DNA of 64,000 nucleotides from a virus. A program made the position numbers and the translations under genes. This document shows positions 19,301-56,034 of this stretch, one piece after another; the first letter of the stretch is position 1; each line of letters begins with the position of its first letter. Under the pieces are notes generated by a model that made no database searches, was not told where the DNA came from, and saw only the letters and a list, made by a program, of their open reading frames with translations. Where the stretch lies: IMG/VR virus record IMGVR_UViG_3300009180_000022, one strand, 5' to 3'.

Positions 19301-20188
19301 ACAGCAATAGTTAAGAGTAAATCTAATGAAATTAGTGGCACTACTCTCACCAAGTCGCTTACCTGCACATTTACATTAGGTGCAGCTGCGTACGCTACTT
19401 CACCCATACTAGATGATTCTCCAGCATCCCTTGTTTCAAGCAGATACTTAATTAATAATTCGTACGCTAATGAAAATACAAGATACGGAAATGCGATGTG
19501 CAAGTATATTTCTAAACGTATTGTACTTGCTGATGGTATGGATGCTGAAGATATTAAAGTATACATATCAGCATACAAACCAGTAGGTAGTGAAGTTATT
19601 GTGTATGCTAAGATACTTAACACCTCTGATACAGAAGATTTTGTAAACAAAGATTGGACAATATTAAGTCAAGTTACTGAATCTTCTCTATTCAGCTCAA
19701 CATCCGATGAGTCTGATGTTAAGGAGTATGAATATACATTCCCAAGCACTCCGCCTTCTATCATAATAGGTGGCGCTATAACTGCAACAACTGCGTGCAA
19801 TGTTGTTACCGGTTTAAATACAGTGTTTAATACCGACCTTACAGTAGACAGTATTGTTAAAATTGTAAGGAGCAGTCCTACTACTGATTACTTTATTAGT
19901 ACCGTAAATGCTATTTCAAGCGGGACAAGCTTGATACTAGATTCACCTGTTACATTTAGTTCAACAGCAGCTGCTACTACTATTACTGGGCTTACCATGG
20001 AACGGGTTACTACCCCTCAAGCTGCATTTAAGTACAATCAAAATGCAAACATAGTAAAGTATTATTCAGCAGCGCAGCAGGAAATGGATTCATACAAATA
20101 TATGGCCATAAAGGTAGTGCTTTTATCTTCAAGCACATTTACTATTCCTAATGTTAATGATATAAGAGCGATAGCAGTATCGGTATAA
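13370..20188 (+). CDS. Large baseplate/virion structural protein (VrlC-like, DUF4815-type)
   Basis: NLNTTPYFDDYDEDKQFHRVLFRPGVALQARELTQLQSILQNQIERFG, LAKRTFEESGNY, RYTMSDISSLDKRIQRLEYYTAL, RFKNGFFVD, DPLAQTF and C-terminal IPNVNDIRAIA. Confidence 0.8.
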   Translation: MPIETNLNTTPYFDDYDEDKQFHRVLFRPGVALQARELTQLQSILQNQIERFGNNIYLKGTIISGCTLSADYAYNYIKILDLQENGAPVSLQSYTEKIGIQEASGLKASIVNYVSGFQTSNPDLNTLYVKYLNTGSSGEKVFAADQVIKIYSPTLPIESISIATGGTGYSNSDIVVIYGTSGTGATATITTNSLGKIIDISMTNGGTSYSTVPGVYITSSATAGSITVIGAYTTTGGITGYPSSHSGSIGDGYIVGGSTLYIWSGTAWVKSDGSGAIFTALNYNAQIRVASDSFTAPVGVGAAIKTSRGIIYQKGNFIQVNEQTALLQKYTTYVDNKVVGFYTNESIVNSNIDSTLLDIATGTPNFAAPGANRLKLNPTLSVLSADAASANNDYLPLLEFQLGNIVKDRTSTQFNSVNKELAKRTFEESGNYVLEAFSLDTSTVPTSNATVNNSNYFTTVLSPGTAYVSGERVNLLNTTKALVRKGLDTITVPNQYINTSYGNYVIVNELQGNFDVRAGTTVSLKSAAATSLTLNTGTIPSPGVTVGTAVIRSIEYMAGTPGTPAATYKLYLFNINMQAGRSFKDVKAAHITSTAVADIVLVGSPAIAVLNDTERDTLVFNTGSYAVQQLTSTQFIYRTSSTTSIGVTGSVSFTVSGESTSLPYGVGALGSTDKQDFIVIPTTAFRFNANNAGTVTVADASTTMVVGSGASFTTSYVAGDYISINNVVRRINRIINNDSLELTAAYGTTVSSGIAHFTAFPALTPIDFTRAGRSITVASTTSFTLNIGAAINTATNITIYHNLLVVNAPIKTKTLVANVHVKLSTSLITASTVGPWCLGIPDVLSVEGVYIGSGSYATDDTTNFVNDFVLNNGQKNNIYGLAYLSKKPGSTVTLTGANQLVVKVKAFQISDGRYASALSYPVDDASATLPSNKIRTQTIPIYISPSSGEAISLRDAIDFRPHVSNTAVLATVLASASIDPSSTETLVASADKYFPAPSESFQGSVVSYLSRIDRINLTQQGQMKIVEGAPANNPLPPPVDTGCMDLGLLNVAPFPSLPSKVASAAGRPDLKNSIRQSQTRRYTMSDISSLDKRIQRLEYYTALNTIEAKTKNLTLTSEANTSLERFKNGFFVDPLNDYSISNLNDGEFKALIDLDRTRLTPQQIITPIDLKYSATGSTNVVKNLDLITLPYTSEVLVSQPHANKERTLVTGFWSFVGKMTVVPRVDNFFDTQVTSTSVIDINIADPLRALTDTVNQTLGAINLTPNAIKTTSSGVSLTGTQYSNPDAWTVRTTQNFAETLTTTLGVKNNQITVAPTVTTTQDVGSYLKSVNINTYIKAQRICMHVAGLRPGAQHWVFFDGIDVTDRCSQADLISNITDPNKASVDNFNPRTNKNTGAGSLFADSTTGILSIILYLPNDTFASGEKTVLVMDVSSLASETSATSKSTGKFSSFGISGTSGNITASTKTFNTTSGSPFANKTIDSTEVLNTTTNRWSTSTQVSNYPPPPPPPPPGVGPMGGRGGPDPLAQTFYIQAQGQVEYVHLTSIDIYFKAKDANLGVSLDIREVSDSGDVLPYILGFGSVYLPSASVSVDSTQASVATTFTFSSPLLVKAGREYAIVLTPDGGSPDYRVWTAIPGIADVLNPTLTPNKTWGDGTLFYSTSNRAFTAIQDEDIKFRVNYAMFTQVSGTAVLTNDDSEYLTITNTSGSFNGGEDVAQYANSFLNTTITTNSACNVILTGSSLTSVLAPGTSILIAYGTANTIGPGTVQSAGLTITNATSTSTSFITTMNFTSGSFIRIGNEIRQVIAVNSENSLTIDVPLNTAAASNNHYTVVSKFDVLKVQAVTSSQITVNRPPSYTTSSILAASIQQAVSGKVKYFDPTAGALHIRDSNAANSIFKILPANSTYKALMVGDRSDARASVSSIGSIEVLSFTPFINVINPTGTSVTQTLNLTKSSSGTTTSVSFPLAGKTDLDINDTAIVKSKSNEISGTTLTKSLTCTFTLGAAAYATSPILDDSPASLVSSRYLINNSYANENTRYGNAMCKYISKRIVLADGMDAEDIKVYISAYKPVGSEVIVYAKILNTSDTEDFVNKDWTILSQVTESSLFSSTSDESDVKEYEYTFPSTPPSIIIGGAITATTACNVVTGLNTVFNTDLTVDSIVKIVRSSPTTDYFISTVNAISSGTSLILDSPVTFSSTAAATTITGLTMERVTTPQAAFKYNQNANIVKYYSAAQQEMDSYKYMAIKVVLLSSSTFTIPNVNDIRAIAVSV

Positions 20189-20189
20189 T

Positions 20190-20396
20190 ATGAAAGTAGA
20201 AGGCACAGATTTCGTTCGCGATACACACAATAATGCACTGATAAATACAAATGTTAGTGCGTTTATTCTATATAAGCAGCAACGCAATACACTGATTGCT
20301 CAAAGCGCTCAAGAAATTGAGATATCAAATCTCAAAAATGAGCTTACCCAAATGAAAAATTTGCTACAAGAATTAATTAGAGACAAGAATGGCTAA
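20190..20396 (+). CDS. Small conserved coiled-coil protein typically following the VrlC-like gene
   Basis: MKVEG..FVRD....ALINTN start and heptad-like C-terminus. Tightly packed with both neighbours. Confidence 0.65.
   Translation: MKVEGTDFVRDTHNNALINTNVSAFILYKQQRNTLIAQSAQEIEISNLKNELTQMKNLLQELIRDKNG
20240..20247 (+). promoter_or_regulatory. Possible late promoter for the fibre-collagen-enzyme unit
   Basis: GATAAATA inside the small gene, ~140 bp upstream of 20389. Confidence 0.4.
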
Positions 20397-23300
20397 ACCA
20401 GTATCAAACGTTACAATTGCAACCGACACCTTTGCCGGTTGGGTAGGAAAGAGTAATATTCTTTTAGATGCTCTTACTAACCTTACAGTTACAGTAGAAA
20501 CATCTACACTCGGCGCTAATGTATATGGTAATGGTAGTGTATTTGGTACGCTTTCAGCAAACGTACTAAGTGCAACAGTAATGAGGGGTGGAGGGGTTGG
20601 TAATACAGCCAACGTATCTACATTGACTATTGGTATAGCAAATTCTACAGTATCATCAAACGTAATTATTACTGGCTACACCGCCAATGTTACAGCAAAC
20701 AGTTTAAACGTTACTTCAAACTCAAACTTCTCTGGTAACACTCTAGTCTACAGTAATACTACCGGTAACGTCTCTGTTACAGCTACTAATACGGCTATAG
20801 GTGGTGGTTCTTTTGATGTTTCATCAAACACAAACATTAGATCTCGACTAATGTATGTATATGCAAACACCACCATTTCTGGTGCTAATACTATTATTAT
20901 CGCAGGTTCTGGACAGGCATCACAAACGTTTGATGCTAATGCTGCAGTTGAAACAGTTAATAATTCTATCGCGATAACAACAGCACCAACATATAGCATT
21001 AATGAACCGGTAGTATATACGGTTGCTGCTGGTAATACAGCGCTGGCCGGGCTTGTATCAGGTACAACGTATTACATTCAATTCTCTAATGCTACCAGTG
21101 TAAAATTATCTACCACACCCGGAGGTACAGCATTAACACTAACTAAAGGCCTAACACAAACCGGTCATAGTTTTGCCGGTATTAGCGGTAACGTTGCCAT
21201 TGGAGCATCTAATACTACCATTAGAGGTATTAATTTAAATATTCAATCAAATGTCAGTATTACAAGTGCAAATTTAAACTACACTAATGCAACAGGTAAC
21301 GTTTATGTAAATACAGCAATAGCATACATTACAGGTGGTAACGTAAGTATTACATCCAATACCTATATTAATACTACCAACACTACTGTTAATACTGCTA
21401 ACTTTTTACTGTCTGGGGGACAGGCTAACGTTACTTCTAACGTAAATATTACAAGTGCTAATTTAATTTATAATAACGCATCAGGGAATGCATCTATTAC
21501 ATCTGCTAATACTACTGTTGCAGGCGGTAACTTTAATATATCGTCTAACGTCAGCATTACAGGTGCTAATTTATCTTATGTTAACGCGTCTGGTAATGTA
21601 AGTATTAATACTGCAGCCGTATATGTTAGGGGTGGTACCGTAAGGGTATTCTCCAATAGCATATCATCCGGTGCTAATACTATTATTATAGCAGGTTCAG
21701 GTCAAGCATCACAAACGTTTGATGCAAATGCTGCTGTAGAAACAGTTAATAATTCTATAGCGATAACAACAGCACCAACATATAGCATCAACGATCCGTT
21801 AGTTTATACGGTTGCAGCAGGTAATACTGCACTTACCGGGCTTGCATCAGGTACTACCTACTATATCCAATTCTCTAACGCCACCAGTGTAAAGTTAGCC
21901 TCAATACCGGGCGGATCAGCGCTTACACTAACTAAAGGCCTAACACAAACCGGTCATAGTTTTGCCGGTGTTAGTGGTAACGTAGTTATAGGTTCCTCTA
22001 ATACTACAATTAGAGGTATTGATTTAAATATTCAATCGAATGTTAACATTACAAGTGCTAATTTAATTTATAATAACGCATCAGGGAATGCATCTATTAC
22101 ATCTGCTAATACAACTGTTGCAGGTGGTAACGTAAATATATCGTCTAACGTCAGTATTACAAGTGCAAATTTAAACTACACTAATGCAACAGGTAACGTT
22201 TATGTAAATACAGCAATAGCATACATTACAGGTGGTAACGTAAGTATATCGTCTAACGTGAGTATAACAGGTGCTAATTTATCTTACGTTAGCGCGTCTG
22301 GTAACGTAAGTATTAATACTGCAGCCGTATATGTTAGGGGTGGTACCGTAAGGGTATTCTCCAATAGCGTCACGTCTGGTGCAAACACCATTATTATAGC
22401 AGGTTCAGGTCAAGCCCTCGCTACATTTAATTCTAATACTGATGTAGATAATACAACAGGGTTAATTACCATAGGCGCAACTGCGGCTAGCTACACAGTT
22501 AATGATCCGTTAGTTTATACGGTTGCAGCAGGTAATACTGCACTGACAGGACTTACATCAGGGTCTACCTTTTATATTCAATCTACAACTAGTACGGCCA
22601 TAAAGTTATCTTCAATACCAGGTGGTGCTGCAATCTCCCTTACAAAAGGAGTAACTGAAGCAGGTCACAGTTTTACAGGAGTTAGTGGTAATGTAGTTAT
22701 AGGTTCCTCTAATACCACCATTAGAGGTATTGATTTAAATATTCAATCGAATGTCAGTATTACAGGTGCAAATTTAAATTACACTAATGCATCAGGTAAT
22801 GTTTATATTAATACTGCAATAGCATACATTACAGGTGGTAACGTAAGTATATCATCGAATGTTAACATTACCAGCGCTAATTTAATTTATAACAATGCAA
22901 TTGGTAACGCATCGATTACATCTGCTAATACTACTGTTGCTGGCGGTAACTTTAACATATCATCTAATATTAGTGCTACCGGTGTAACCTTAATATACAA
23001 TAACGCATCAGGGAATGTATCGATTACATCTGCAAATACAACAGTAGCAGGTGGCGTGTTGAATGTTACATCCAACACCAATTTAAGACCTGCCCAGGTT
23101 ATCGTATATGCAAATACTGTTATGTCAGGCGCTAATGTTGATATTATCGCAGGTTCTGGACAAGCATCACAGTCGTTTAATTCTAATACTGCTGTAGAAA
23201 CTGTTAATAATTCTATTGCAATAACAGCATCATCAACATATAGCATTAACGATCCGGTAGTGTATACTGTCGCCGCTGGTAATACAGCACTTACCGGGCT

Positions 23301-24363
23301 TGCATCAGGTACTACGTATTACATTCAATTCTCTAATGCTACCAGTGTAAAATTATCTACCACACCAGGCGGGGCTGCACTTGCACTAACAAAGGGGTTA
23401 ACACAAACTGGCCATAGTTTTGCCGGTGTTAGTGGTAACGTTTCAATAGGTTCAGCTAATACCACGATCAACGGCACCACATTTAATGTACAGGCAAACG
23501 TTAATATAACGGGCGCAAACGTTATAATTAATAACTCGTCTGGTAACGTAATAATCACCTCAGCAAACACAAAGTTTGACGGTGGAGATTTATATTCAAC
23601 TTCTAATGTTAACTTTGCCGGTGCCAAAGTTACATCTTCAGCTAATATTGATATAACTGCTACACTCGTCATATTTAACAACGCTTCAGGTAACGTTGCC
23701 ATAACTGCATCTAATACGACGATTACTGGTGGCGCTATCAACCTAGGATCGAACGTTTCATCCAATGCTGCAGCCATCACGACAACAGGTAACGTGACTG
23801 CAAATGCGTTTGCTGCAACTGTTGTTAGAGGTGGCGGTATAGCTACTTACGGTGTTTTAGCAGTTGGTTTTGCAAATTCTACCGTATCCTCTAACGTAAC
23901 TATCAATGGCAACACAACTACCATCAGAAGTACGGATGTATTAATTGATTCAACTAACGTACTAACTGTTAACAATGGTATTACTGCTAACGGTAATATT
24001 ACACTTGCCAATACCGTTTCGTTTGGTACGATATCGATAATTACAGCAAAGACGGCCGCGGCGCAAACCTTTGCAACGGCTGCCGTACAGAATGAGATAG
24101 ACGCCTTTACTATTGCAAACTTCTCAGCTGCTAAATATTCAATTAGCGCAGTACATGACGGTAATTCGAATAACAAGATTATGACTGAAATTTCGGTTGT
24201 ATATGGGCATACAAATGCACACATGACTGAATACGGTACAATCTTCTCGAATACACAATACTCTACGTTCTATGTTGAATCAAACACAACACACGTTAAA
24301 CTACTCGCTAACTCTACATTAACACCTGTGACATATAAAATGGTTAGAACCGCTCTGACCTAA
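20389..24363 (+). CDS. Asn/Thr/Ser-rich fibre protein with four internal globular repeats and a C-terminal putative docking domain
   Basis: N-terminal V..TDTF.GW..K.N anchor-like motif and beta-strand repeats. C-terminal D.F.IANFSAAKYSI...EISVVY....MTEYG is shared with the 29266 fibre. Confidence 0.7.
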   Translation: MAKPVSNVTIATDTFAGWVGKSNILLDALTNLTVTVETSTLGANVYGNGSVFGTLSANVLSATVMRGGGVGNTANVSTLTIGIANSTVSSNVIITGYTANVTANSLNVTSNSNFSGNTLVYSNTTGNVSVTATNTAIGGGSFDVSSNTNIRSRLMYVYANTTISGANTIIIAGSGQASQTFDANAAVETVNNSIAITTAPTYSINEPVVYTVAAGNTALAGLVSGTTYYIQFSNATSVKLSTTPGGTALTLTKGLTQTGHSFAGISGNVAIGASNTTIRGINLNIQSNVSITSANLNYTNATGNVYVNTAIAYITGGNVSITSNTYINTTNTTVNTANFLLSGGQANVTSNVNITSANLIYNNASGNASITSANTTVAGGNFNISSNVSITGANLSYVNASGNVSINTAAVYVRGGTVRVFSNSISSGANTIIIAGSGQASQTFDANAAVETVNNSIAITTAPTYSINDPLVYTVAAGNTALTGLASGTTYYIQFSNATSVKLASIPGGSALTLTKGLTQTGHSFAGVSGNVVIGSSNTTIRGIDLNIQSNVNITSANLIYNNASGNASITSANTTVAGGNVNISSNVSITSANLNYTNATGNVYVNTAIAYITGGNVSISSNVSITGANLSYVSASGNVSINTAAVYVRGGTVRVFSNSVTSGANTIIIAGSGQALATFNSNTDVDNTTGLITIGATAASYTVNDPLVYTVAAGNTALTGLTSGSTFYIQSTTSTAIKLSSIPGGAAISLTKGVTEAGHSFTGVSGNVVIGSSNTTIRGIDLNIQSNVSITGANLNYTNASGNVYINTAIAYITGGNVSISSNVNITSANLIYNNAIGNASITSANTTVAGGNFNISSNISATGVTLIYNNASGNVSITSANTTVAGGVLNVTSNTNLRPAQVIVYANTVMSGANVDIIAGSGQASQSFNSNTAVETVNNSIAITASSTYSINDPVVYTVAAGNTALTGLASGTTYYIQFSNATSVKLSTTPGGAALALTKGLTQTGHSFAGVSGNVSIGSANTTINGTTFNVQANVNITGANVIINNSSGNVIITSANTKFDGGDLYSTSNVNFAGAKVTSSANIDITATLVIFNNASGNVAITASNTTITGGAINLGSNVSSNAAAITTTGNVTANAFAATVVRGGGIATYGVLAVGFANSTVSSNVTINGNTTTIRSTDVLIDSTNVLTVNNGITANGNITLANTVSFGTISIITAKTAAAQTFATAAVQNEIDAFTIANFSAAKYSISAVHDGNSNNKIMTEISVVYGHTNAHMTEYGTIFSNTQYSTFYVESNTTHVKLLANSTLTPVTYKMVRTALT
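20881..23439 (+). repeat. Four ~310 bp intragenic direct repeats (~20881-21192, 21670-21981, 22378-22692, 23128-23439) plus shorter shuffled spacer repeats
   Basis: Repeated AGSGQASQTFDANAAVETVNNSIAIT...YTVAAGNTAL.GL.SGTTYYIQFSNATSVKL...LTKGLTQTGHSFAG, with near-identical DNA stretches. Confidence 0.9.
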
Positions 24364-24394
24364 TAATAAAAACAATTAGCGGAAAGGGAAGCTA

Positions 24395-26464
24395 ATGGCG
24401 TCAAATACACAAAATTTTAGAGTTAAGTACGGTGCAGATGTAACCCTAGGGCTTTCTGCTAATACTTTATCAATCACATCTACTGCCAACGTTGGTGGTA
24501 ATATGGGTATTAAAGGTGATCTTCAGGTTGAAGGTAACATCAATTCTTTTGGTGCAGTTAGTTATAGCGCCGGTACTATTAACCTAAACAACGCCCAAAG
24601 CACTCCTACAGCAGTAGCACCTACGCTTGATGCAGCTGTAGTAGCCAAGAGAGGCACAAGCGCTGACGTACAGGTCAAGTGGAATGAAACGATTGATAGG
24701 TGGGAGTTTACCAATGATGGAACGTTGTATATTCCTTTACTCTCATATCCTAATCTAACATTTGCATTTGATACCGGTACTGATACTGCAACAGACCCTG
24801 GCGCTGGTAAGTTTAGGTTTAACACTGGAACAACATCAACCGTAACACAGATTGCATTAAACAATGTTGAATATAAAGGCGGTAATGTTCGAAGCTTTAT
24901 ATCAAGCTGGACTAGTAGTAGTGCTATAAATGGATTTTTAATCTTGCGTAGCTATAGCGACCCAAGTAAAATAATGACGTTTAGCGTTAATGGTAGGGCC
25001 AGCCAAACCGGGTTCATGCAATTAAATGTAATTAATATATCGACAGGTAGCGGATTATTTACTAGTGGTGAATTGGTCAGCATGCATTTTTCAGCATCCG
25101 GTGATAAAGGTCAAAAGGGTGAGATAGGCGATAAAGGTCAAAAAGGAGAAAAGGGTGATAAAGGCGAAAAAGGCGAAAAGGGTGATAAAGGTGAAGTTGG
25201 AGATAAAGGTCAAAAGGGCGAGAGAGTAAATAGCGGGTCATATAATTCATCTACTGATACCGTTACCTATACTAATTCTGACGCATCTACTTTTACTATA
25301 ACCGGATTCAAAGGTCAGAAGGGCGAGATTGGAGATAAAGGCGAAAAAGGTCAGAAGGGTGAGATTGGAGATAAGGGTCAAAAAGGTGAGCGTGTAAATT
25401 CCGGAGCATATAATGCTGGTACTGATACCGTTACCTATACTAATTCTGACGCATCTACTTTTACTATAACCGGATTCAAAGGCCAAAAAGGCGAAACGGG
25501 TGCACGTGTATCGTCTGCAGTCTTTACTGATGCTACCAACACCACTACCTTTACCGAATCTGACGGATCAACATTTACAGTATCTGGCCTAAAGGGTGAT
25601 AAGGGCGAAAAAGGTCAAAAGGGTGAAGTTGGAGATAAAGGTCAAAAAGGTGAAACCGGTGCACGTGTATCATCTGCAGTCGCTAATAACACTACCAACA
25701 CCACTACCTTTACCGAATCTGACGGATCAACCTTTACAGTAGGTGGCCTAAAGGGGGATAAGGGTGAAAAGGGTGAAAAAGGTGAAAAGGGAGAAAAAGG
25801 CGAAAAAGGTCAAAAAGGCGAAGTTGGTGATAAAGGCCAAAAAGGCGAAAAAATTACCGCGGTAACCTATTCAGACGCTTTGAATACTCTTACATTTACA
25901 AACTCTGATACAACTACTCTTTCTATAGCTGGTATTAAAGGTCAAAAAGGCGAAGTTGGTGATAAAGGCCAAAAAGGTGAAATAGGCGCCAAAGGCGACA
26001 AAGGCGAAAAAGGTCAAAAGGGCGATGCTGGAGGTTTTACAACAGGGGATAACGCACAGGTTAACTCATTAGGTGTTGGAGTAGCAGCATCAGGTACTGC
26101 AGGCACAATTCTTGCTACTGGTGATATTACTGCTTTCTACTCTGATAAAAGACTGAAGGACATTGAAGGTAACATACCTAACGCGTTAGAACTTGTAACT
26201 AAACTGAATGGGGTATATTATACTAATAATGACCTTGCAAAATACTACGGATATGATGATACATCGAGAATGATAGGTGTTATTGCTCAGGAAGTTCAAG
26301 CAACAATACCAGAAGCTGTCAAGCCTGCACCTTTTGATATGGGAGTAGATAATACAAGTAAGTCAGGTAATAATTACTTAACTGTACAGTATGAAAAAAT
26401 TGTACCGTTACTTATCGAGGCGATCAAGGAACTTAACATTAAGGTAGATAAACTTCAACGTTAA
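24395..26464 (+). CDS. Collagen-like fibre: six interrupted Gly-X-Y segments (Lys in Y, no Pro) and a C-terminal peptidase S74 intramolecular chaperone
   Basis: GDKGQKGEIGDKGQKGEK... repeats at ~25100-26030. FY-SDKRLK autocleavage motif (~26138-26158) followed by IGVIAQEV and YEKIVPLLIEAIKEL. Confidence 0.9.
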   Translation: MASNTQNFRVKYGADVTLGLSANTLSITSTANVGGNMGIKGDLQVEGNINSFGAVSYSAGTINLNNAQSTPTAVAPTLDAAVVAKRGTSADVQVKWNETIDRWEFTNDGTLYIPLLSYPNLTFAFDTGTDTATDPGAGKFRFNTGTTSTVTQIALNNVEYKGGNVRSFISSWTSSSAINGFLILRSYSDPSKIMTFSVNGRASQTGFMQLNVINISTGSGLFTSGELVSMHFSASGDKGQKGEIGDKGQKGEKGDKGEKGEKGDKGEVGDKGQKGERVNSGSYNSSTDTVTYTNSDASTFTITGFKGQKGEIGDKGEKGQKGEIGDKGQKGERVNSGAYNAGTDTVTYTNSDASTFTITGFKGQKGETGARVSSAVFTDATNTTTFTESDGSTFTVSGLKGDKGEKGQKGEVGDKGQKGETGARVSSAVANNTTNTTTFTESDGSTFTVGGLKGDKGEKGEKGEKGEKGEKGQKGEVGDKGQKGEKITAVTYSDALNTLTFTNSDTTTLSIAGIKGQKGEVGDKGQKGEIGAKGDKGEKGQKGDAGGFTTGDNAQVNSLGVGVAASGTAGTILATGDITAFYSDKRLKDIEGNIPNALELVTKLNGVYYTNNDLAKYYGYDDTSRMIGVIAQEVQATIPEAVKPAPFDMGVDNTSKSGNNYLTVQYEKIVPLLIEAIKELNIKVDKLQR
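25100..26030 (+). repeat. Collagen Gly-X-Y repeat region with five ~27-aa non-collagen spacers
   Basis: Hand count of about 60 triplets, about 45 with Lys in Y. Identical 63-bp duplication (25252-25314 and 25420-25482) and 40-bp duplication (25533-25572 and 25692-25731). Confidence 0.92.
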
Positions 26465-26479
26465 ACCACAAACTATATT

Positions 26480-28456
26480 ATGAAAATCTTTGTTATTAAT
26501 CTTGCACGAAGAACTGATAGACTTAAACACATTAGCGGACAACTCAACGGGTATGATTTTGTACCCGTTGAGGCTATTGATGGCAATACGTTAAGTTTAT
26601 CAGGTTCCCAACATAAATATTATAAGGATTGGGTCGACCCGTTACTTAATCGACGCCTTACAATTGGTGAGATAGCCACTACCCTTTCCCATATCAAGGT
26701 ATGGAATATGGTTGCTGAGCTAGACGAACCAGCACTTATTTTAGAAGATGATTCAATTCTATCTGGAGACTTTAGACCGGCTGATATTTTAGGGTACATG
26801 GAACGGTGCGATATGTTGTATCTCAACCACCGTGAAATGGTGGAATCTAATGCACGTGAAATCAACGATGAGCTTGTCCGTCCTTACTACCCCTATCTAG
26901 GTAATGCATATGTCATTACACCAAAGTTTGCAAGGGATCTTATAGCACTTGGATTACATCAATGCATTATTCCTGTTGATGAATTTTTTCCTATAATTAA
27001 TGGTGTAGATTTTAATCACTATTGTCTTTCAGAAAGTTCTAATATTAAAAAGTGTTTTGTTGATCTGTCAAAAAAGTTCAGTCGCGAAACATACAAGATT
27101 TATGCATACAAAACGCCCATATTTGAACAACAATCTAGAAGTGTAATGGGTTCTGATATCGAGAATTCTCCTACTATTCCTGATGATTATTACTTTCTGA
27201 CTGTAGGTACAGACGAATCGCAGATGGATGCATTATACGCATCGTGTAAGAGGCATAACGTAAATATTATTAATCTCGGTAAAGGAAAAACTTGGACTGG
27301 TGGAAATATGGAAGCCGGGCCAGGTGGTGGGTATAAGCTTAACCTGGTAAAAACATTCCTTGAATCAAGCAACTTACCTGATAATACTATAATCGGTTTC
27401 TTTGATGGGTATGATGTGTTAATTAACGACACTGAACAGACGATCATTGATAAGTTTAAAAGCTTTGAGGCATCGATAGTGTTTGCTGCAGAGAAGACGT
27501 GTTGGCCTGATTCTAGCATAGCATCACAATACCCACCTTGCGATACAGAGTATAGATACCTAAACAGTGGGTGTTACATAGGATATGCGGGTAGCTTAAA
27601 ACAGATTATATGGTCTGTAGACCCTTATGGTGACGTAGTAGGCGATACGTCTGACGATCAACTTTACTTGCATCTAAAATACCTTGAAAATTACGAGGTA
27701 CCAGGAGTACGAATTAGATTAGATCATAGGAATGAGTTGTTTCAATGTTTGAGTGGAGCCGAGGATAGTCTAGGGTTTACAAGTAGTGATAATATCTTTA
27801 ACACTGAAACCAAAACATGTCCGAGTATACTTCACGGTAATGGCGGAAAATTCCAAAAGGAAGTATTTCGCAAGATTTATGTTGATAAATTTCTTCCTGA
27901 TTTAATGCAATTCAATTCTGCGTCTAAATTTAGCATCGTTGCGCCTGAGATACTTCTAACAGATTTCTTCACCAAAAGAGACTGTGAGTATATTATTCAG
28001 AAGGCAGAACTTATTAATCAGTGGGAGCAGCTCCCCGGGGACAAGTTTCCAGGTCAAGAATTAAGAATTAAAAAGCTTGATCAAGGGCTGTATAACCTCA
28101 TGGAAGAAAAGATTAGAACAGGACTATACCCGGCAATCGAGCAGTACTGGAGACCGCTCCAGATGTATGGTATTAGAGACATGTTTATAATTAAGTACCA
28201 GCATGGGTCTCAAATAAGCCTTCCGTGTCATCATGACGCCTCACTTGTTACAATAACGGTCCGATTAAACGATGAATATGAGGGCGCTGAGTTATATTTT
28301 TATAGGCAAAATTACAGTAATATTGATGTAAAAACTGGAGAGGCTATTATATGGCCAGGACAGGTTACCCATGGTCATGAATCGAGACCTCTTATAAGCG
28401 GGATTAAGTATAGTCTTGTTATATGGACGTCACGCTATAAAGGCGATGTAAACTGA
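26480..28456 (+). CDS. Three-domain putative collagen-modifying enzyme: GT25 (COLGALT-like), PLOD/LH3-type glycosyltransferase and 2OG-Fe(II) lysyl hydroxylase
   Basis: GT25: VINLARRTDR, EAIDG, DPLLNRRLTIGEI..LSH, LILEDD, IPVDEFFP, GSDIENS. PLOD GT: LTVGT, LGKGKTWTGG, GGGYK, FFDGYDV, FAAEKTCWP, RYLNSGCYIGY, DDQLY, LDHRNELFQCL, LHGNG. Hydroxylase: FIIKY, LPCHHDAS, YEGAELYF, WPGQVTHGHES, GIKYSLV. Confidence 0.88.
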   Translation: MKIFVINLARRTDRLKHISGQLNGYDFVPVEAIDGNTLSLSGSQHKYYKDWVDPLLNRRLTIGEIATTLSHIKVWNMVAELDEPALILEDDSILSGDFRPADILGYMERCDMLYLNHREMVESNAREINDELVRPYYPYLGNAYVITPKFARDLIALGLHQCIIPVDEFFPIINGVDFNHYCLSESSNIKKCFVDLSKKFSRETYKIYAYKTPIFEQQSRSVMGSDIENSPTIPDDYYFLTVGTDESQMDALYASCKRHNVNIINLGKGKTWTGGNMEAGPGGGYKLNLVKTFLESSNLPDNTIIGFFDGYDVLINDTEQTIIDKFKSFEASIVFAAEKTCWPDSSIASQYPPCDTEYRYLNSGCYIGYAGSLKQIIWSVDPYGDVVGDTSDDQLYLHLKYLENYEVPGVRIRLDHRNELFQCLSGAEDSLGFTSSDNIFNTETKTCPSILHGNGGKFQKEVFRKIYVDKFLPDLMQFNSASKFSIVAPEILLTDFFTKRDCEYIIQKAELINQWEQLPGDKFPGQELRIKKLDQGLYNLMEEKIRTGLYPAIEQYWRPLQMYGIRDMFIIKYQHGSQISLPCHHDASLVTITVRLNDEYEGAELYFYRQNYSNIDVKTGEAIIWPGQVTHGHESRPLISGIKYSLVIWTSRYKGDVN

Positions 28457-28468
28457 TATTTAAGGATT

Positions 28469-28476
28469 AATAAATA
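28469..28476 (+). promoter_or_regulatory. Late promoter variant upstream of 28495
   Basis: Intergenic AATAAATA. Confidence 0.6.
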
Positions 28477-28494
28477 CCTTAAAAGGGCACGACA

Positions 28495-28827
28495 ATGGCT
28501 ACTAAAGCAAATTTAAGCATCGATCAAGGGGCGACCTTTAGCACGTCAATTACACTAACAGATTCGTCAGATAACATAGTAGATCTGACTGGATATACTG
28601 GTGCCTCTCAAATGCGTAAAAGCGCCACCTCATCAGCATATACAGCATTTACTGTTGTGCTTGGTAATACAGCAGGGACCATCAATCTCTCTCTTTGAGC
28701 CAATTCAACAGCAAACGTTGCCGCTGGTCGCTATCTTTATGATGTTGAACTTACAGAAACTGCATCAAACACAATCTCTAGAGTTTTTGAAGGTATAGTA
28801 ACGGTAAATCCAAACATCACGAGGTAA
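28495..28827 (+). CDS. Conserved small virion/fibre-associated protein interrupted by an in-frame TGA at 28696-28698
   Basis: MATKANLSIDQGATFS...DLTGYTGASQMRKS. The same frame continues past the TGA as ANSTANVAAGRYLYDVELT...RVFEGIVTVNPNITR to TAA 28825-28827, 1 bp before the next ATG. Confidence 0.75.
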
Positions 28828-28828
28828 T

Positions 28829-29194
28829 ATGTCACTAGTAGCCATACCAACACAGGTATTAAGGGTCAATAGAAAAGACACTTTAATTACATCTGATACA
28901 CCGATCACCTTAAGAACAACTACATCCAACTATCTAGAAACGTTAAAGGATGTAAATGTAACTGGGGCTGCCAACAACAGCCTTTTTGTATACAATACAA
29001 CGTTATCAAAGTGGGAAGACCATTCAATATCCGGAACTGCTAACGAAGTAGAGGTTAGCTTTAGTTCTCAAGACATTACTATTGGTCTACCTAACGATGT
29101 AACTGTAGGTACTCTAACTGCTACGACTGTAACTACAACGGATTTCAACGTCTCATTGTTGAGCTTCAGCAATATCGACTGCGGAGAGTTCTAG
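28829..29194 (+). CDS. Small fibre-associated structural protein
   Basis: LETLKDVNV...NNSLFVYNTTLSKWE motif and terminal IDCGEF, both common in fibre-associated proteins of environmental T4-like phages. Confidence 0.6.
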   Translation: MSLVAIPTQVLRVNRKDTLITSDTPITLRTTTSNYLETLKDVNVTGAANNSLFVYNTTLSKWEDHSISGTANEVEVSFSSQDITIGLPNDVTVGTLTATTVTTTDFNVSLLSFSNIDCGEF

Positions 29195-29212
29195 TCTCTC
29201 AAACCATTACGA

Positions 29213-29220
29213 CATAAATA
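29213..29220 (+). promoter_or_regulatory. Late promoter variant upstream of the long fibre gene
   Basis: Intergenic CATAAATA. Confidence 0.65.
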
Positions 29221-29265
29221 GATAGTCTTATATAAGACTTCTACTATCCTACATAGGGTGTTCTA

Positions 29266-32200
29266 ATGGCAAATACAAAAATTCTTCAGGTTAAGCGTAC
29301 CACAGTTTCTGGGCGCCTACCTAACACTTCTAGTACCTCCAACAGCTCGTACATCTATCCAGGTGAATTTGCATTCAACCTAGCCGATAGAAAGCTTTAC
29401 TCCCAATACGCTTCCGTACCGTTTGAAGTAGGCGCAAACTTATCTTCACTAGTTGTAACCGGTAATGCCTCTATTACCGGTACGCTTACTGTTGTAGGTA
29501 ATACGATCTATACCGGTAACGTAGTTTATATTAACACCACGAACCTGACCGTTGGTGATAATATCATCACCCTTAACTCTGATGTAACCGGATCACCAAC
29601 TGAATCGGCCGGCATTGAAATTAATCGCGGCACATCGGCAAATGTAAGCTTTCTTTGGGATGAAGCAAACACTAGATGGACTATAGGTTCACAGAACCTT
29701 TTTGTTGGCGGCAGTATTAATGCTGTATCTATTTCTGTTACAAACTTTACGGCCGCCAACATTGCCGCTGTAAACTTAAGCACATCTAATAACTTTGCAG
29801 TCTCTAATACTAGTTTTGATATAAATACAGGTATTGCCGGGTGGCATTATAGCGGTAAAGCACTATCGGTTAACGCAAAAGAATCTGTACCTAGAGGAGT
29901 CAGTTTTTCTTCCGATGGTACAAAAATGTATGTTGTAGGAACTAGTTCTTCTTCAGTACATCAGTACAATCTATCATCAGCATTTGATGTAACTACCGGT
30001 ACATTTGCAAGCACCCTTTCTGTTTCTACTCAAGAAGCAGCTCCTTCTGGTTTATTTTTTAAATTAGATGGTACTAAGATGTACATTATCGGTACTACGT
30101 CTGATTCAATACATCAGTATAGTTTGGCAACAGCCTGGAATTTAAGTACTGCTACTGCCGATGGTGTGTCATATAATATCGTTCAAGACACTTCACCAAC
30201 TGATATATTCTTTAGCCCTGACGGTACGTCTGTATTCATTCTTGGTAATACAAATAGTAGAGTTAACAAATATACTTTATCCTCAGCTTGGAATATTTCT
30301 ACTGCAACATTTAATAATTTCTTTGCTTTTTCAAGTTCATCTAATGAAAGTAATGCAACAGGTCTGACGTTTAATTCAACAGGTACAATTATGTACTTAG
30401 TAGGACTAAATACAAATTATATTTTTAGCTATGCTCTATCTACCCCATGGGATGTAACTACAGCAACGATTACCGGGTATAAGAGTGTATACAACGTTGA
30501 ATCAGGTGTTCAAGGTGTTTTTTATAGTCAGACTAGCAATAAGTTTTGGATAGTAGGTGCATCAAACGATACGGTATATCAGTATGACACTAATGATAGT
30601 GCAGCACTTAAAGTAACTGCTAACTCCTTACATATAACTGGCATATTAAGTGTCAGTAATAATATTAGTATTGATGGTAACTTCCATACATTAGGAACTA
30701 TTAAAGCTGAAAATGATATACAGACTGACGGTAACCTAACAGTCGTAGGAACTACTTTACTTGGCAATACAACTACTGTCACCGGTGCATTTACTGTAAC
30801 TGGAACCACAACAACAACCTCAATTCAAAGTACTCAAACATCTGGCACAATCACTTTAGGTGGAACTACTGGTACTGGTGCTATTACGGTTGGTCAGTCA
30901 ACTGGAGTTCAAACGTTAGGTCTTGCAACTGGCGCCACAACATCTTCAAATACAAAGACAGTTAACATTGGTACAGCAGGGCTTTCAGGCTCCATTACCA
31001 ACGTTAATATAGGATCGGTGGTTTCTGGTGCAACAGGTACAACGACAATTAATAGCAATAACGTCGTTGTACCTAATAACCTTGCCGTTACTGGTACAGC
31101 TAACGTTGCAACTACTATAAATGTAGGCGCAAATTTAACGATTAATACAACCTCATATGGGATTGGTAACTCAACTATAAATGCAGTACTTACATCTACT
31201 TCATTATTGATAGGTAATACAGTTGCCAACACAACCGCGGTTGCAGTAGGCGCAAACGTTATTGCTAATACTACTGCTTTACTAGTTGGTAATAGTTCAG
31301 TTAATAGTATCATCACATCATCCCTGTTAACAACAACTACTGCCAATTTATCGACAAGTGTTAATGTTGGTGCTAACGTTAACTTAAGTACTACTCAAAT
31401 TAAAGTTGGTAATTCGAGCGTCAATACAGTTATTACAAGCACTACTATTACTGGTAATGCAGCGGCGACTCTAGGTAATACAACTATTAACGGATCCTTA
31501 ACAGTTACTGCCAATACTGTTGCTGCTCAGGTCAATACGACAAGCATCAACGTTGGTGCAAACGTAAACATAAGTGCCACTCAACTCAACGTTGGCAATA
31601 GTACAGTAAATACTGTCATTACTAGTACAACGATGACGGGTAATGGTGCTGGTATCCTTAACGTTAACGCTGCAACTGTTGGATCTAATACAGCTTCAAC
31701 ACTGAGGACATACTCAGAGACGCAAGCTGCCAATGCATACACCACTGCTCAGGCCAACTCAGCTAATGCTACTAACATTTCAAGTGGTACGCTTGCAACC
31801 GCCAGATTACCTGCAACTGTCAACGTTGCAACTACTGTAAACGTTGGTGCAAACGTAAACTTAGGTACATCTTCTATCAACGTTGGTAATGCAACAATCA
31901 ATACCGTAATTACGTCATCAACAATTACTACATCCGGTAATGTTTTTGCATCAGGTGGGCTGGTTGTTAATACTAACTCTTCCACCGATGCCGTAAGAAT
32001 TACTCAATTAGGTGCTGGTAATGCGCTGTTAATTGAAGATGATACTTCAACTGACGTAACTCCTACTGTTATTGATACTAACGGTGTTTTAGTGCGTGGT
32101 GCTACTTCAAAAGCAAGTCACTGGTCTGCAAGTGTAGCCGCGCCTGAATCGTTCTTCGTTGGTAATTCCGGTTCATCTATAGGTGTAGGTATTATTGGTC

Positions 32201-35200
32201 ATGCTACAAACCCAGTTATTCTGCTTGCAAGAACTGCTAATTCTACACTAGGTGGTAGGGCTCTTATAGCTGATAGTGATAATATAGGCACTATAACGTT
32301 TGCGGGTGATGCTAATACTGGAAGCAATTTTTCGATAGGTGCTCGTATTATAGGTAAAATTAACGGTACGGCAAATGACACTTCACTACCAGGATCATTA
32401 GATTTTCAGGTTACTCCAGCAAATGCGTTAGTACCAACGTCGAGAATGACAATAAATGCTAACGATACAATTACGTTTTCATCTAATTCTAATCTTAAAT
32501 TAGGTGTTAGTGTTTTAGGTAATACTCAGCTGGCAATAGGTAGTACAACTTCCAACGCCACTCTAACTCAAACATCGTTAAACATAGGTACATCAACAAG
32601 TAATGTACAGATAAATTCAAGCAGCCTGACTGTTGGTAATACTTCTTCTGGTACTGTCAACGCGTTTGCTATTAACTTAGGCGCAAACGTAAATATTAGT
32701 ACTAGTGGATTAAACATAGGCAATTCTACTGTCAATACTTTTATAACTGCATCGTCTATCAGCACAAACGGTACGCTTACAATCACCGGTAATACAACAG
32801 CCGGGCAGATTAATGCTACGAGTATTAATGCCAATAACCTGTCGCTATCTGGTAACTTAACTGTATCAGGTTCAATTACCTATCTTAACTCGACTACATT
32901 AAACATAGGTGATAATTTAATTACACTTAATGCCGATCTTACCAATGTAACTGCACCTACTGAAAATGCAGGTATTGAGGTTAACAGGGGTTCTGCTGCT
33001 AATACTAGTTTTTTCTGGGATGAGACTAACGCAAGATGGACAGCAGCCAATAATACCTATATTGCAGGTACATTAACGACAACTGGTAATACAGTTGCTG
33101 CTCAAATTAACGCAACGAGTATCAACGTCGGTGCTAACGTAACTTTAAATACCACAGCAATTAGTGTAGGTAATAGTACAGTAAATTCTGTAATTACAAG
33201 CACATCAATATCTGGCAATGGTGCCGGTATCCTTAACGTTAATGCAGCTACCGTTGGTTCTAATACTGCTAGTGATCTGAGAACCTATTCAGAGACTCAG
33301 GCCGCTAATGCATACTCAACTGGGCAAGCTAACTCGGCTAACGCCACTAACATTACTAGTGGTACACTTGCAACTGCAAGATTACCGGCTACAGTTAACG
33401 TTGCAACAGTCATTAATGTAGGTGCAAATGTAGGGTTAGGAACTAGTCAGCTTACTATTGGCAATACAACTGTTAATAGTTTTTTAAATGCAACCAATTT
33501 AAAGGTTAACACTACAACGATTAGTAGTAATGCTTTAACTATTTCTGGTGCAAATGCTACTGCAAACGCAACTATTCTATTGCAGCTTGATGGTGGTCAG
33601 GCCCAGGTTGAACTAGGTGGATCAGTTGGTGCATACATAGACTTTAAGACACCGTATGCTGATGATTATGATTATAGATTATCGGCAGGCGATACTGGTT
33701 TTACTATTACTGCTAAATCTTCGACTAATGCAGCGAATTCACTTTTTATTGTTGCTGACTCCGTATTTGTAAATTCAGCGTTCACTGTTGCTAACAACAC
33801 CGGTAATACCTTTATAATGAATGCTAACGGTGATGTTGGCATCAATACTACTGGAGGAGGCGCTGGTGTATCTGATCTTCTTCACATCAGAAAAGATTCA
33901 AACACCAATATTGGTATAGTAGTACAAAATAGAGTCGCAAACCTTTCGGCACAATCCAGTATTAAATTTATTACCGGTCAGTTTGATTTATCCGACTCAA
34001 GGTATTCAGAAATATCCGGATTTACTACAGCGGGCGGGGCATCCGGGTTACAATTCCGAACCGGTAATGGTGCTGCGCCTTCCAACAGAATTACAATTTT
34101 ACCTGCTGGTAATGTTGGTATCTCTAATACTGCACCTGACGCAGCGCTGGCCGTTACTGGTGCTGCAAACGTATCTGGTAATGTAATAATTGGGGGTACG
34201 TTAAGTACTTCCGGTAACACTGTTGCTGCTCAAATTAACGCTACAAGTATTAACGTCGGTGCAAACGTAATTATAAGCACATCCCAAATAAATGTAGGTA
34301 ATAGTACTGTTAATACAGTTATAACAAGTACAAGTATAACAGGAAATGGCGCAGGGCTTACAACAGTTAATGCAGCCACTGTTGGATCAAATACCGCAGG
34401 TGATCTGAGAACATATTCTGAAACCCAGGCATCAAATGCGTATACAACAGCTGTTGCTAATACATCGAACGCCACTAACATTACAAGCGGCACTCTTGCA
34501 ACTGCAAGGCTACCGTCTACAGTAAACGTTGCAACGGTTATAAACGTTGGTGCCAACGTTAATCTTGGTGTGACCGATCTAAGGATCGGCAATTCAACTA
34601 TTAATGCTGTAATAAGTTCGACTGCACTTACTCTTTCAACTAATACCGCCACCTTTGGTAATGCAGCATATATCGCAGCTAACGGTAATATATCTGTCGG
34701 AACTACTGCATCTAATTGGAAGCTTCTTGTAAACGGACCTACAGTAGCTAACGTTGCTAACTCACAATCACTTGTAGCAAGATTTACAGCAAATAATCAG
34801 AATAGTGATGCGTTAGAAATAACCAATACACGAGGAACGGATGGAGGAGTATCAGGAGATTGGACAACAGCCGGGTTTAGACTACAACAAAAAGTTGATG
34901 CAACCTGGATGGGTTACATGCAGTACAATGGAACTACGTCTGGATTAAATAATGGTGGTATTAGTTTTGGTACTGGTCAAAGCACATCTAACGCAATTTC
35001 TATTACCGAAAGATTGAGAATTACTGGGACTGGTAACATAGGTATTTCAAATACCGCACCTGACGCTACATTAAAGGTAACAGGTACGGCAAACGTCTCT
35101 GGAGCCGTAGTTATTGGCGGTACTACATCGATTGCAGGTAACACTACAATCGATGCGACTACCCTGACTACACGTGCAATTACTGCAAATGCAATTAATG

Positions 35201-35853: not shown

Positions 35854-35886
35854 CAATTAATCGCCTTTAATAGAGAGTGAAATTAA

Positions 35887-48210: not shown

Positions 48211-48242
48211 TATAAATATCTTTAAGTTCTTAGTTATAAATA
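48211..48242 (+). promoter_or_regulatory. Two tandem T4-type late promoters upstream of gp18
   Basis: TATAAATA at 48211-48218 and 48235-48242. The cognate gp55 is in the window. Confidence 0.85.
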
Positions 48243-55015: not shown

Positions 55016-55023
55016 TATAAATA
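55016..55023 (+). promoter_or_regulatory. T4-type late promoter upstream of gp22
   Basis: Exact intergenic TATAAATA. Confidence 0.85.
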
Positions 55024-56026: not shown

Positions 56027-56034
56027 TATAAATA
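56027..56034 (+). promoter_or_regulatory. T4-type late promoter upstream of gp23
   Basis: Exact intergenic TATAAATA. Confidence 0.88.

Follow-up and report, generated by a model that had tools for sequence, protein, structure and literature searches.

A fused three-domain enzyme of marine phages predicted to modify lysines of an adjacent collagen-like tail fibre

A 64,000-nt stretch of viral DNA (IMG/VR record IMGVR_UViG_3300009180_000022; the full stretch is hereafter called the window) encodes a 658-aa protein, P0001, that joins three domains resembling the enzymes with which animals modify collagen lysines, and the gene lies directly downstream of that for a collagen-like tail fibre, P0002. 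We consider it likely that P0001 sequentially hydroxylates and glycosylates the lysines at the Y position of the Gly-X-Y triplets of this fibre. Our evidence consists of the identities of the domains, the conservation of their active sites, their agreement with known folds, the placement of the GT25 domain in trees, and a family-wide linkage of the enzyme to collagen genes with lysine at Y; from it we infer catalysis, the sugars used, the order of the steps and a biological role. Glucosyl-galactose (Glc-Gal) linked to hydroxylysine (Hyl) is regarded as a hallmark of animal collagens and, to our knowledge, has so far been known outside animals only from mimivirus.

Domain architecture of P0001

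The start codon of the P0001 gene lies 15 bp past the stop codon of the fibre gene, and the open reading frame (ORF) divides into three domains.

26480..28456, + strand: three-domain enzyme P0001, 658 aa (ORF, Pfam, PDB sequence search)
26480..27175, + strand: GT25 domain, aa 1-232, COLGALT1-CGT-like, predicted Hyl beta-galactosyltransferase (sequence, fold, trees)
27176..27853, + strand: PLOD/LH3-type glycosyltransferase (GT) domain, aa 233-458, predicted Gal-Hyl glucosyltransferase (PF25342; fold of LH3 and mimivirus R699)
27854..28453, + strand: lysyl-hydroxylase-like 2-oxoglutarate (2OG)/Fe(II) oxygenase domain, aa 459-658 (matches to the mimivirus L230 and LH3 hydroxylases)

Pfam profiles identified GT25 (PF01755) at aa 2-100 (E 7.6e-24) and GT_PLOD (PF25342) at aa 238-456 (E 5.2e-57). 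A PDB sequence search matched P0001 to the GT and hydroxylase domains of human LH3 (E 4e-31 and 9e-8, respectively), to mimivirus R699 (E 2.6e-34) and the L230 hydroxylase (E 1.8e-8), and to human COLGALT1 at its C-terminal catalytic domain (E 1e-11). We compared an AlphaFold2 model built from a 40-homologue alignment (mean predicted local distance difference test score, pLDDT, 90) with the PDB using Foldseek. The PLOD-type GT superposed on the isolated LH3 GT domain (6wfv) with a template modelling (TM) score of 0.87, a root-mean-square deviation (rmsd) of 2.6 Å and 33% identity, and on R699 with an rmsd of 2.2 Å. For the GT25 domain the rmsd was 2.9 Å to human COLGALT1 (9evk; 26% identity across 231 columns), 5.9 Å to mimivirus R655 and 9-11 Å to the solved bacterial GT25 beta-1,4-galactosyltransferase (8xlz/8xkd). 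The oxygenase domain matched the L230 hydroxylase (6ax6) with TM 0.75 and rmsd 2.2 Å, while other 2OG oxygenases, prolyl 4-hydroxylase (P4H) and others, gave 4-7 Å. All three domains thus fit the PLOD/COLGALT folds with their catalytic residues intact, as an earlier note on this DNA, made from the letters alone, had proposed should be checked.

Several parts of the animal enzymes are missing from the phage chain. The first GT25 strand of the predicted structure begins at residue 2, leaving no space for a signal peptide. The N-terminal, non-catalytic, UDP-Gal-binding GT domain of COLGALT is absent from P0001, whose GT25 domain starts at residue 2, and by architecture P0001 is therefore not a full COLGALT orthologue. 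The PLOD accessory domain is absent as well: LH3 residues ~280-620 have no counterpart, and the gap between the GT and the hydroxylase is only ~25 residues (aa 457-480) with a single helix (aa 457-475), too short to hold it. The earlier note had described these absences, which Pfam, the alignments and the model bear out, in a minimal fusion of COLGALT-type and LH3-type catalytic domains within one 658-aa protein. Pfam, the PDB search and the folds show that ORF and fusion are real, and architecture, folds and active sites support reading P0001 as a compact, cytoplasmic, single-chain form of the animal two-protein set.

The compactness of the three-domain chain stood, but its singularity did not, because P0001 belongs to a large family of phage proteins. 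At least 524 relatives are present in IMG/VR, and at least 200 clusters at 90% identity span its full length, many of them on contigs of 140-165 kb. Residues 1-654 match positions 1-631 of the 689-position profile of PHROG 61 (E 1.9e-84), a family that is labelled '2OG-Fe(II) oxygenase' and filed under auxiliary metabolic genes, with no collagen-related function given. The architecture is already a catalogued phage family, apparently an uncharacterised one.

Conservation of the three active sites

We counted conservation over an alignment of 40 full-length homologues (35-86% identity) and placed residue roles by HMMER alignments, taking those of GLT25D1, the human COLGALT1, from PMC12987934 and those of LH3 and R699 from PMC9546862.

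26744..26752, + strand: E89-D90-D91; D90 corresponds to GLT25D1 D436 (ribose) and D91 to D437 (Mn2+); 40/40 invariant
26897..26899, + strand: L140, at the position of GLT25D1 W495 in the 'YW' acceptor motif (alignment)
26978..26983, + strand: D167-E168, corresponding to GLT25D1 D522 (catalytic base) and E523 (Hyl epsilon-amine anchor); D in 40/40, E in 39/40
27404..27415, + strand: D309-G-Y311-D312, corresponding to LH3 D112/Y114/D115 (Mn2+, UDP); D309 and D312 in 40/40, Y311 in 37/40
27833-27835, + strand: H452, corresponding to LH3 H253, third Mn ligand; 40/40
28229..28237, + strand: H584-H585-D586, corresponding to LH3 H667-H668-D669 (Fe2+ ligands H and D); H584 and D586 in 40/40
28376..28378, + strand: H633, corresponding to LH3 H719, third Fe2+ ligand; 40/40
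28406..28408, + strand: K643, at the position of LH3 R729 (binder of the 2OG C5 carboxylate); Lys in 40/40

Residues of GLT25D1 and LH3 that are named as catalytic or cofactor-binding are invariant or nearly so among the 40 homologues, with E89/D90/D91, D167, D309/D312/H452, H584/D586/H633 and K643 identical in all. From the UDP/Mn2+ ligand set of GLT25D1, R351 and R354 have their counterparts in R11 and R14 of the GT25 domain, kept in 36/40 and 38/40 homologues, and Y139 matches Y494 of the 'YW' acceptor motif in 39/40. The GLT25D1 lid loop S569/D570/T571 touches the beta-phosphate (PMC12987934); the residues of G-S225-D226-I-E228 are kept in 38, 37 and 38 of 40 homologues at the expected distance, an equivalence drawn by motif only, as the COLGALT1 alignment ends at residue 173 and T571 would be Ile. 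The PLOD-type GT contributes a set present in 40/40 (W272, K286, D309, D312, E338, W342, D392, D393, H452 and N454) that matches LH3 W75, K89, D112, D115, E141, W145, D190, D191, H253 and N255, among which E141, W145, D190, D191 and N255 act in acceptor binding or catalysis (PMC9546862). In the oxygenase, Y573 matches LH3 Y656 in all 40 homologues.

The motifs listed in the earlier note hold up in these alignments. Its likeness of GSDIENS to VSDTETS of COLGALT has indirect backing only, from the lid-loop residues S569/D570/T571 named in PMC12987934. Its other COLGALT likenesses align as it proposed, DPLLNRRLTIGE with DPYHGRPLTKGE and IPVDEFFP with LPVDEFLP, and its LH3 GT motifs DGYD/TCWP/LNSG/DDQL/HGNG face DSYD/FCWP/LNSG/DDQL/HGNG of LH3. 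The coordinates that it gave for the iron ligands are exact (28229-28237 encode H584-H585-D586; 28370-28378 encode H631-G632-H633), and the Lys of its GIKY motif, said to replace the 2OG-binding Arg of PLODs, is K643, which aligns with LH3 R729. Motif and active-site conservation lie far beyond chance. All three sites are under purifying selection, with two family-level departures from the animal enzymes, namely Lys for Arg729 and a variable W495 column.

The adjacent collagen-like fibre and a proposed reaction sequence

The proposed substrate, P0002, is the sole collagen ORF within the window; the earlier note mentioned neither the phage setting nor this fibre.

24395..26464, + strand: collagen-like tail fibre P0002, 689 aa, proposed substrate (Pfam Collagen E 9.6e-29; PHROG tail-fibre families)
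25100..26032, + strand: collagen region of six Gly-X-Lys-rich segments, aa 236-546, with ~27-aa non-collagen spacers
26141..26323, + strand: Peptidase_S74 intramolecular chaperone domain, fibre aa 583-643 (Pfam E 3.5e-11)

The collagen segments (aa 236-277, 304-333, 360-371, 398-424, 451-486 and 513-546) comprise 63 Gly-X-Y triplets, in 46 of which Y is Lys; X is mostly Glu, Asp or Gln, and there is no Pro. Every Lys at Y is part of an X-Lys-Gly sequence, as required by lysyl hydroxylases and by GLT25D1. The C-terminal Peptidase_S74 domain marks P0002 as a trimeric phage tail fibre. Between its collagen segments are five copies of a Ser/Thr-rich spacer of ~27 aa with the form ...T(V/T)T(Y/F)T(N/E)SD(A/G)STFT(I/V).G, so that triple-helical stretches and a repeated non-collagen module take turns along the fibre.

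We propose that the C-terminal 2OG/Fe(II) oxygenase would convert Lys at Y of Gly-X-Lys in the upstream fibre to 5-hydroxylysine, and that the N-terminal GT25 domain would transfer a hexose, most likely Gal from UDP-Gal, onto the new hydroxyl, with D167 as the base and E168 holding the lysine amine. The central PLOD-type GT would then add Glc from UDP-Glc via its Mn2+ site D309/D312/H452. Each chain of the tail fibre would then bear up to 46 Hyl-linked glycans, which might make a proline-free triple helix more stable, shield it, or adjust host recognition. We are less sure of the exact glycan than of the overall modification because P0001 has Leu at the W495 position.

Linkage of the enzyme to lysine-rich collagens

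We compared 80 loci drawn from the at least 524 IMG/VR relatives with 80 control loci around a gp6-like baseplate gene. Collagen ORFs occurred at 7.6 per 100 kb in enzyme loci and 1.1 per 100 kb in control loci, and their composition also differed: Lys occupied Y in 29.8% of 7,051 triplets at enzyme loci but in 0.4% of 492 at controls, and X in 0.0% and 0.2%, respectively. Where an enzyme locus included at least 5 kb of upstream sequence, a collagen ORF was found in 33 of 37 cases; the nearest collagen ORF lay on the same strand within 1.5 kb in 46/55 loci, and within 100 bp in 12. The restriction of Lys at Y to enzyme-linked collagens argues for a functional tie between the two genes.

Reversing the search, with the fibre as query, we examined 77 loci with Lys-rich collagens. 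Nine of these carried the three-domain enzyme and 19 a two-domain protein consisting of GT25 and lysyl hydroxylase in one frame without the PLOD-type GT; the remaining 49 showed no enzyme within the sequence examined. Among the two-domain loci is a 1.26-Mb giant-virus contig, and examples are as follows.

L194:18168-19277: two-domain GT25-hydroxylase
L174:17468-18715: two-domain GT25-hydroxylase
L202:14939-16186: two-domain GT25-hydroxylase
L175:137-2782: two-domain GT25-hydroxylase (giant-virus contig)

The recurrent pairing of GT25 with a hydroxylase beside Lys-rich collagens provides independent support for GT25 action on Hyl, and the two-domain form is predicted to halt at hexose-Hyl.

Cultured phages carry the module as well. 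The cyanomyoviruses S-CAM9 and S-PRM1 and the Roseobacter phage CRP-6 encode the enzyme under the annotation 'hypothetical protein', and in each its gene lies a short way downstream of one for a collagen-like fibre in which Lys occupies Y in 27-39% of triplets and X in none. Loci of the cyanophage type have, in addition, one or two small PF13640 (prolyl-4-hydroxylase-type) oxygenases between the fibre and fusion genes.

L001:4839-6004: small PF13640 ORFs (S-CAM9 gp220, gp219)
L028:8965-10001: small PF13640 ORFs
L056:9432-10004: small PF13640 ORFs
L244:7839-9004: small PF13640 ORFs

Pro was present in a mean of 36% of collagen triplets at loci with these small ORFs versus 13% at loci without them (Mann-Whitney p 2e-5, a test that ignores relatedness), and the small oxygenases may be dedicated prolyl hydroxylases. 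The window has no small PF13640 ORF, and its collagen triplets have no Pro. In S-PRM1, at 3.6 kb downstream of the enzyme, gp170 (L244:14428-15219) is annotated as a nucleotide-sugar epimerase and could supply UDP-Gal from UDP-Glc.

Relationship of the GT25 domain to COLGALT and to bacterial enzymes

Searched in isolation, the GT25 domain matched COLGALT1 with E 2e-12 over aa 2-173, and matched R655 and the solved bacterial GT25 with E 0.002-0.006 over aa 1-100 only. The bacterial GT25 galactosyltransferases of lipopolysaccharide (LPS) and lipooligosaccharide (LOS), such as 8xlz/8xkd and those of Rahnella and Pantoea, share the CAZy/Pfam family and the N-terminal donor half with P0001; for those of Rahnella, Pantoea and other Enterobacteriaceae, the alignment covers only the N-terminal 40-50%, which binds the donor. 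All aligned GT25s have in common an EDD motif, a catalytic Asp and the Ser of the lid loop. In direct alignment with standalone GT25s, a Glu after the catalytic Asp, a YPYW block and an insert after PVDEFFP are confined to the phage family, and the first two of these traits are shared by COLGALT1. At the position of the Glu, ten aligned standalone bacterial-type GT25s, three of them from named enterobacteria, have K/R/Y/C/H/Q/T.

A GT25-domain search of 1.84 billion representatives gave 1,863 matches, and we built trees with FastTree (168 GT25 domains) and IQ-TREE (LG+C20+F+G4, 48 rows). Among these matches, the butterfly protein P0253 (Brenthis ino) is a true COLGALT orthologue, with E 4e-136 to human COLGALT1. 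Both trees, which derive from quick searches, carry Shimodaira-Hasegawa-type (SH-aLRT or SH-like) supports only, contain no bona fide LgtB, Lic2A or Lex2 sequences and are unrooted within the viral-plus-COLGALT clade, place the metazoan COLGALT clade (butterfly and ostracod; 99% support) within or beside the radiation of viral fusions. In the IQ-TREE analysis, a branch of length 0.61 with SH-aLRT 97% separates viral fusions and metazoan COLGALT from 14 bacterial-type GT25s, and the 168-row FastTree agrees with the placement on the COLGALT side. The control genomes contained one Bacteroides GT25 only, with no locus, and an ESM Atlas search, used as a lead only, returned viral GT25 clusters only, with no alignment. 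The claim of the earlier note that this domain is nearer to COLGALT than to bacterial LOS enzymes is therefore upheld by scores, acceptor-site residues, fold and the 97% branch; the domain does not group with the 14 bacterial LPS/LOS-type sequences, none of which is a bona fide LgtB or Lex2.

Comparison with animal, mimivirus and giant-virus systems

The human pair of LH3 (PLOD3) and GLT25D1 (COLGALT1), whose complex is solved as 8zgc, resembles the phage enzyme in the three predicted activities (Lys 5-hydroxylation, Hyl galactosylation and Gal-Hyl glucosylation), in catalytic residues and folds, and in an X-Lys-Gly substrate motif within a collagen repeat. It differs in being two proteins of the endoplasmic reticulum (ER) of ~740 and ~620 aa, whereas the phage enzyme is one 658-aa cytoplasmic chain in the order GT25, GT, hydroxylase, with 26-33% identity per domain, Lys for Arg729, Leu at the W495 position, and a proline-free fibre as its proposed substrate.

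Mimivirus L230 (hydroxylase plus GT), R699 (Gal-Hyl glucosyltransferase) and R655 (GT25-like) are viral enzymes that act on virus-encoded collagen-like proteins; they are soluble in Escherichia coli, and R699 and the L230 hydroxylase are among the best matches of P0001. In mimivirus, however, the activities are spread over three genes, L230 has the order hydroxylase then GT, R699 retains the accessory domain, and R655 matches the GT25 domain of the phage protein poorly (E 0.002, rmsd 5.9 Å). The mimivirus host is a eukaryote, whereas the setting of the phage enzyme is a bacteriophage tail fibre. These three proteins have been described as viral collagen-modifying enzymes, with L230 and R699 proposed for recombinant collagen production in E. 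coli (PMC9546862), and comparative genomics has predicted that other dioxygenase families hydroxylate bacterial collagen-like proteins (PMC2938197). Our literature search, which had most subscription journals outside its reach, found no description of the three-domain phage enzyme or of Hyl glycosylation of phage fibres, and an earlier account is possible.

Closer in architecture are two fusions of ~900 aa on giant-virus-like contigs that join GT25 to a full-length PLOD.

L242:7852-10605: P0184, GT25 and full-length PLOD
L241:10001-12769: P0244, GT25 and full-length PLOD

These proteins have the order GT25, PLOD GT, hydroxylase in one chain and belong to the same GT25 clade as P0001, but they retain the accessory domain. 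P0184 scores 187 bits to human COLGALT1 and 481 to human LH3, against 50 and 148 bits for P0001. Since the giant-virus forms keep that domain and resemble the animal enzymes much more closely, the phage enzyme is the compact end of a series that leads via giant viruses to the split animal system.

The structure paper on COLGALT1 reported giant-virus and bacterial BLAST matches to its GT25 domain and raised the question of a common ancestor of LH3 and COLGALT1 (PMC12003778). Our results bear on the origin of metazoan collagen modification, as the earlier note had supposed, but no more than suggestively, since the tree has no root inside the clade in question. We hold it unlikely that the full extent of such a history applies, in which animal-type Glc-Gal-hydroxylysine would decorate the fibres of marine phages, abundant cyanophages included, and the metazoan COLGALT catalytic domain, perhaps with the PLOD system too, would derive from the viral radiation of fused enzymes, making the animal ER pair a split and elaborated viral enzyme rather than the viral enzyme a capture of animal genes.

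A three-domain copy also occurs in a bacterial chromosome.

L163:10001-11944: P0112, bacterial chromosomal three-domain copy on an 865-kb contig, with a cyanophycin synthetase gene nearby

It lies in an island with transposases or insertion sequence elements and restriction-modification genes. Domain shuffling is evident elsewhere in the same GT25 clade (P0220, P0282, P0199, P0202, P0087, P0079 and P0119), which includes a PLOD-GT with GT25 and a HalD-like halogenase/oxygenase, a PLOD-GT with GT25, an FkbM methyltransferase with GT25, a sulfotransferase with GT25, and three-domain forms that carry one domain more, N-terminal or a methyltransferase.

Weighing the proposed function

Several findings count against fibre modification by P0001. 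The Pfam match of the oxygenase, to 2OG-FeII_Oxy_3 (PF13640) at aa 572-650 (E 1.9e-5), reaches 26 bits and so falls below the curated cut-off of 27, and all 40 homologues have Lys where PLODs have the Arg that binds 2OG. Lys binds 2OG in other 2OG oxygenases, for example collagen prolyl 4-hydroxylase and FIH, and oxygenase activity with K643 is plausible, although the feature differs from PLODs. The loci compared for linkage are not phylogenetically independent, and several are near-duplicates. No collagen ORF was found within 10 kb in 4/37 well-flanked loci, and no collagen gene within 10 kb of the bacterial copy P0112. Lys at Y beside Glu or Asp at X also stabilises triple helices, so its enrichment by itself is no proof of Lys modification. 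The W495 column, finally, holds W in 21 of the 40 homologues, L in 11, N in 5, H in 2 and M in 1, with Leu in P0001, and W495A abolishes the activity of GLT25D1 (PMC12987934).

This last departure also favours an account in which the hydroxylase and one or both transferases act on the fibre but make a glycan other than the animal Glc-Gal-Hyl, either through a different donor or acceptor binding by GT25 or through a PLOD-type GT that glucosylates Hyl directly, as L230 does on the mimivirus collagen L71 (PMC9546862). Donor specificity is unreadable from sequence, which leaves room for such a product. The GT25 domain nonetheless has its base, its Hyl-amine anchor and its ligands for metal and UDP intact and invariant, the enzyme retains the counterparts of LH3 W145, D190 and D191 that are tied to Gal-Hyl glucosylation (PMC9546862), and selection has kept both transferases fused across hundreds of phages. 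We hold the different glycan to be unlikely.

Less probable still, and in our judgement improbable, is that the enzyme acts on some other protein or small molecule and adjoins the fibre gene through shared late expression in a structural module. The four well-flanked loci and the P0112 island that have no nearby collagen ORF, together with the 49/77 Lys-rich collagen loci that have no enzyme in the sequence examined, would fit such a substrate; many of the loci are fragmentary, though, making an absent partner weak evidence. Against such a substrate, the composition of the collagens tracks the enzyme (Lys at Y 30% versus 0.4% in controls, with none at X), additional P4H-type oxygenases appear where the collagen has Pro, and the acceptor-cleft residues match those with which GLT25D1 binds X-Hyl-Gly.

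Modification of host LPS or LOS, for example as a block to superinfection, is what current annotation would suggest: family members bear the JGI name 'GR25 family glycosyltransferase involved in LPS biosynthesis', the glycosyltransferases of the hypervariable fibre region of pelagimyophages have been read as modifiers of the O-chain or O-antigen (PMC7029224), and family GT25 was founded on LOS enzymes. We reject this role as very unlikely, given that the GT25 domain shares one chain with a hydroxylase and a GT that are both PLOD-type, that its acceptor half is COLGALT1-like rather than bacterial-type and set apart in the trees, that the gene is closely linked to collagens with Lys at Y, and that the protein has no membrane anchor or signal peptide. 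DNA hypermodification by base hydroxylation and subsequent glycosylation, as in JBP/base J or T4 glucosyl-hydroxymethylcytosine, is hardly credible and likewise rejected: it would suit a T4-like phage protein in which a 2OG oxygenase is joined to sugar transferases, and some weak PHROG matches labelled 'DNA endonuclease', but those labels are family names, not tests, the best matches of the oxygenase in sequence and fold are PLOD/L230 lysyl hydroxylases rather than TET/JBP or AlkB, and the gene lies among fibre genes, not replication genes.

Genome context

The window covers the structural module of a T4-like myovirus, a marine phage, with genes for baseplate wedge, neck, gp15, large terminase, sheath, portal, prohead protease, scaffold, Gp23 capsid and UvsW. 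A Megablast search of 20000-36000 against sequenced phages gave no match, that is, no close DNA relative there, and the portal shares 50-57% identity with its counterparts in Stenotrophomonas, Sinorhizobium and Synechococcus phages. Scans for sigma-70 promoters, terminators and the T4 late promoter (TATAAATA) gave hits at chance level, with none between the fibre and enzyme genes. The late-promoter consensus TATAAATA stands directly 5' of the sheath, scaffold and major capsid genes (48211-48242, 55016-55023 and 56027-56034), in a window total that does not exceed chance. The fibre-enzyme pair is flanked by two giant ORFs, at 20389-24363 (1,324 aa) and 29266-35853 (2,195 aa), that have no significant Pfam or PHROG match; the first has a weak, sub-threshold match to DUF2141 and contains near-identical, hairpin-forming 22-nt repeats 711 bp apart (21995-22016 and 22706-22727), which suggests an internal duplication.

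Implications

P0001 is a variant of the viral and animal collagen lysine-modifying enzymes and one of a large, unrecognised phage family rather than a one-off. If the proposed function is correct, Hyl glycosylation would be widespread in ocean phages and placed on structures that recognise hosts, and collagen-like fibres and fibre-region glycosyltransferases now annotated as 'hypothetical', '2OG-Fe(II) oxygenase' or 'LPS biosynthesis' would need re-annotation. The enzyme would also offer a single-gene route, compatible with the bacterial cytoplasm, to hydroxylated and glycosylated collagen-like proteins. The GT25 tree and the giant-virus forms with an accessory domain provide material for the question of a shared origin of LH3 and COLGALT1 (PMC12003778). 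The presence of the module in the cultured phages S-CAM9, S-PRM1 and CRP-6 makes the proposed modification of phage tail fibres directly testable.

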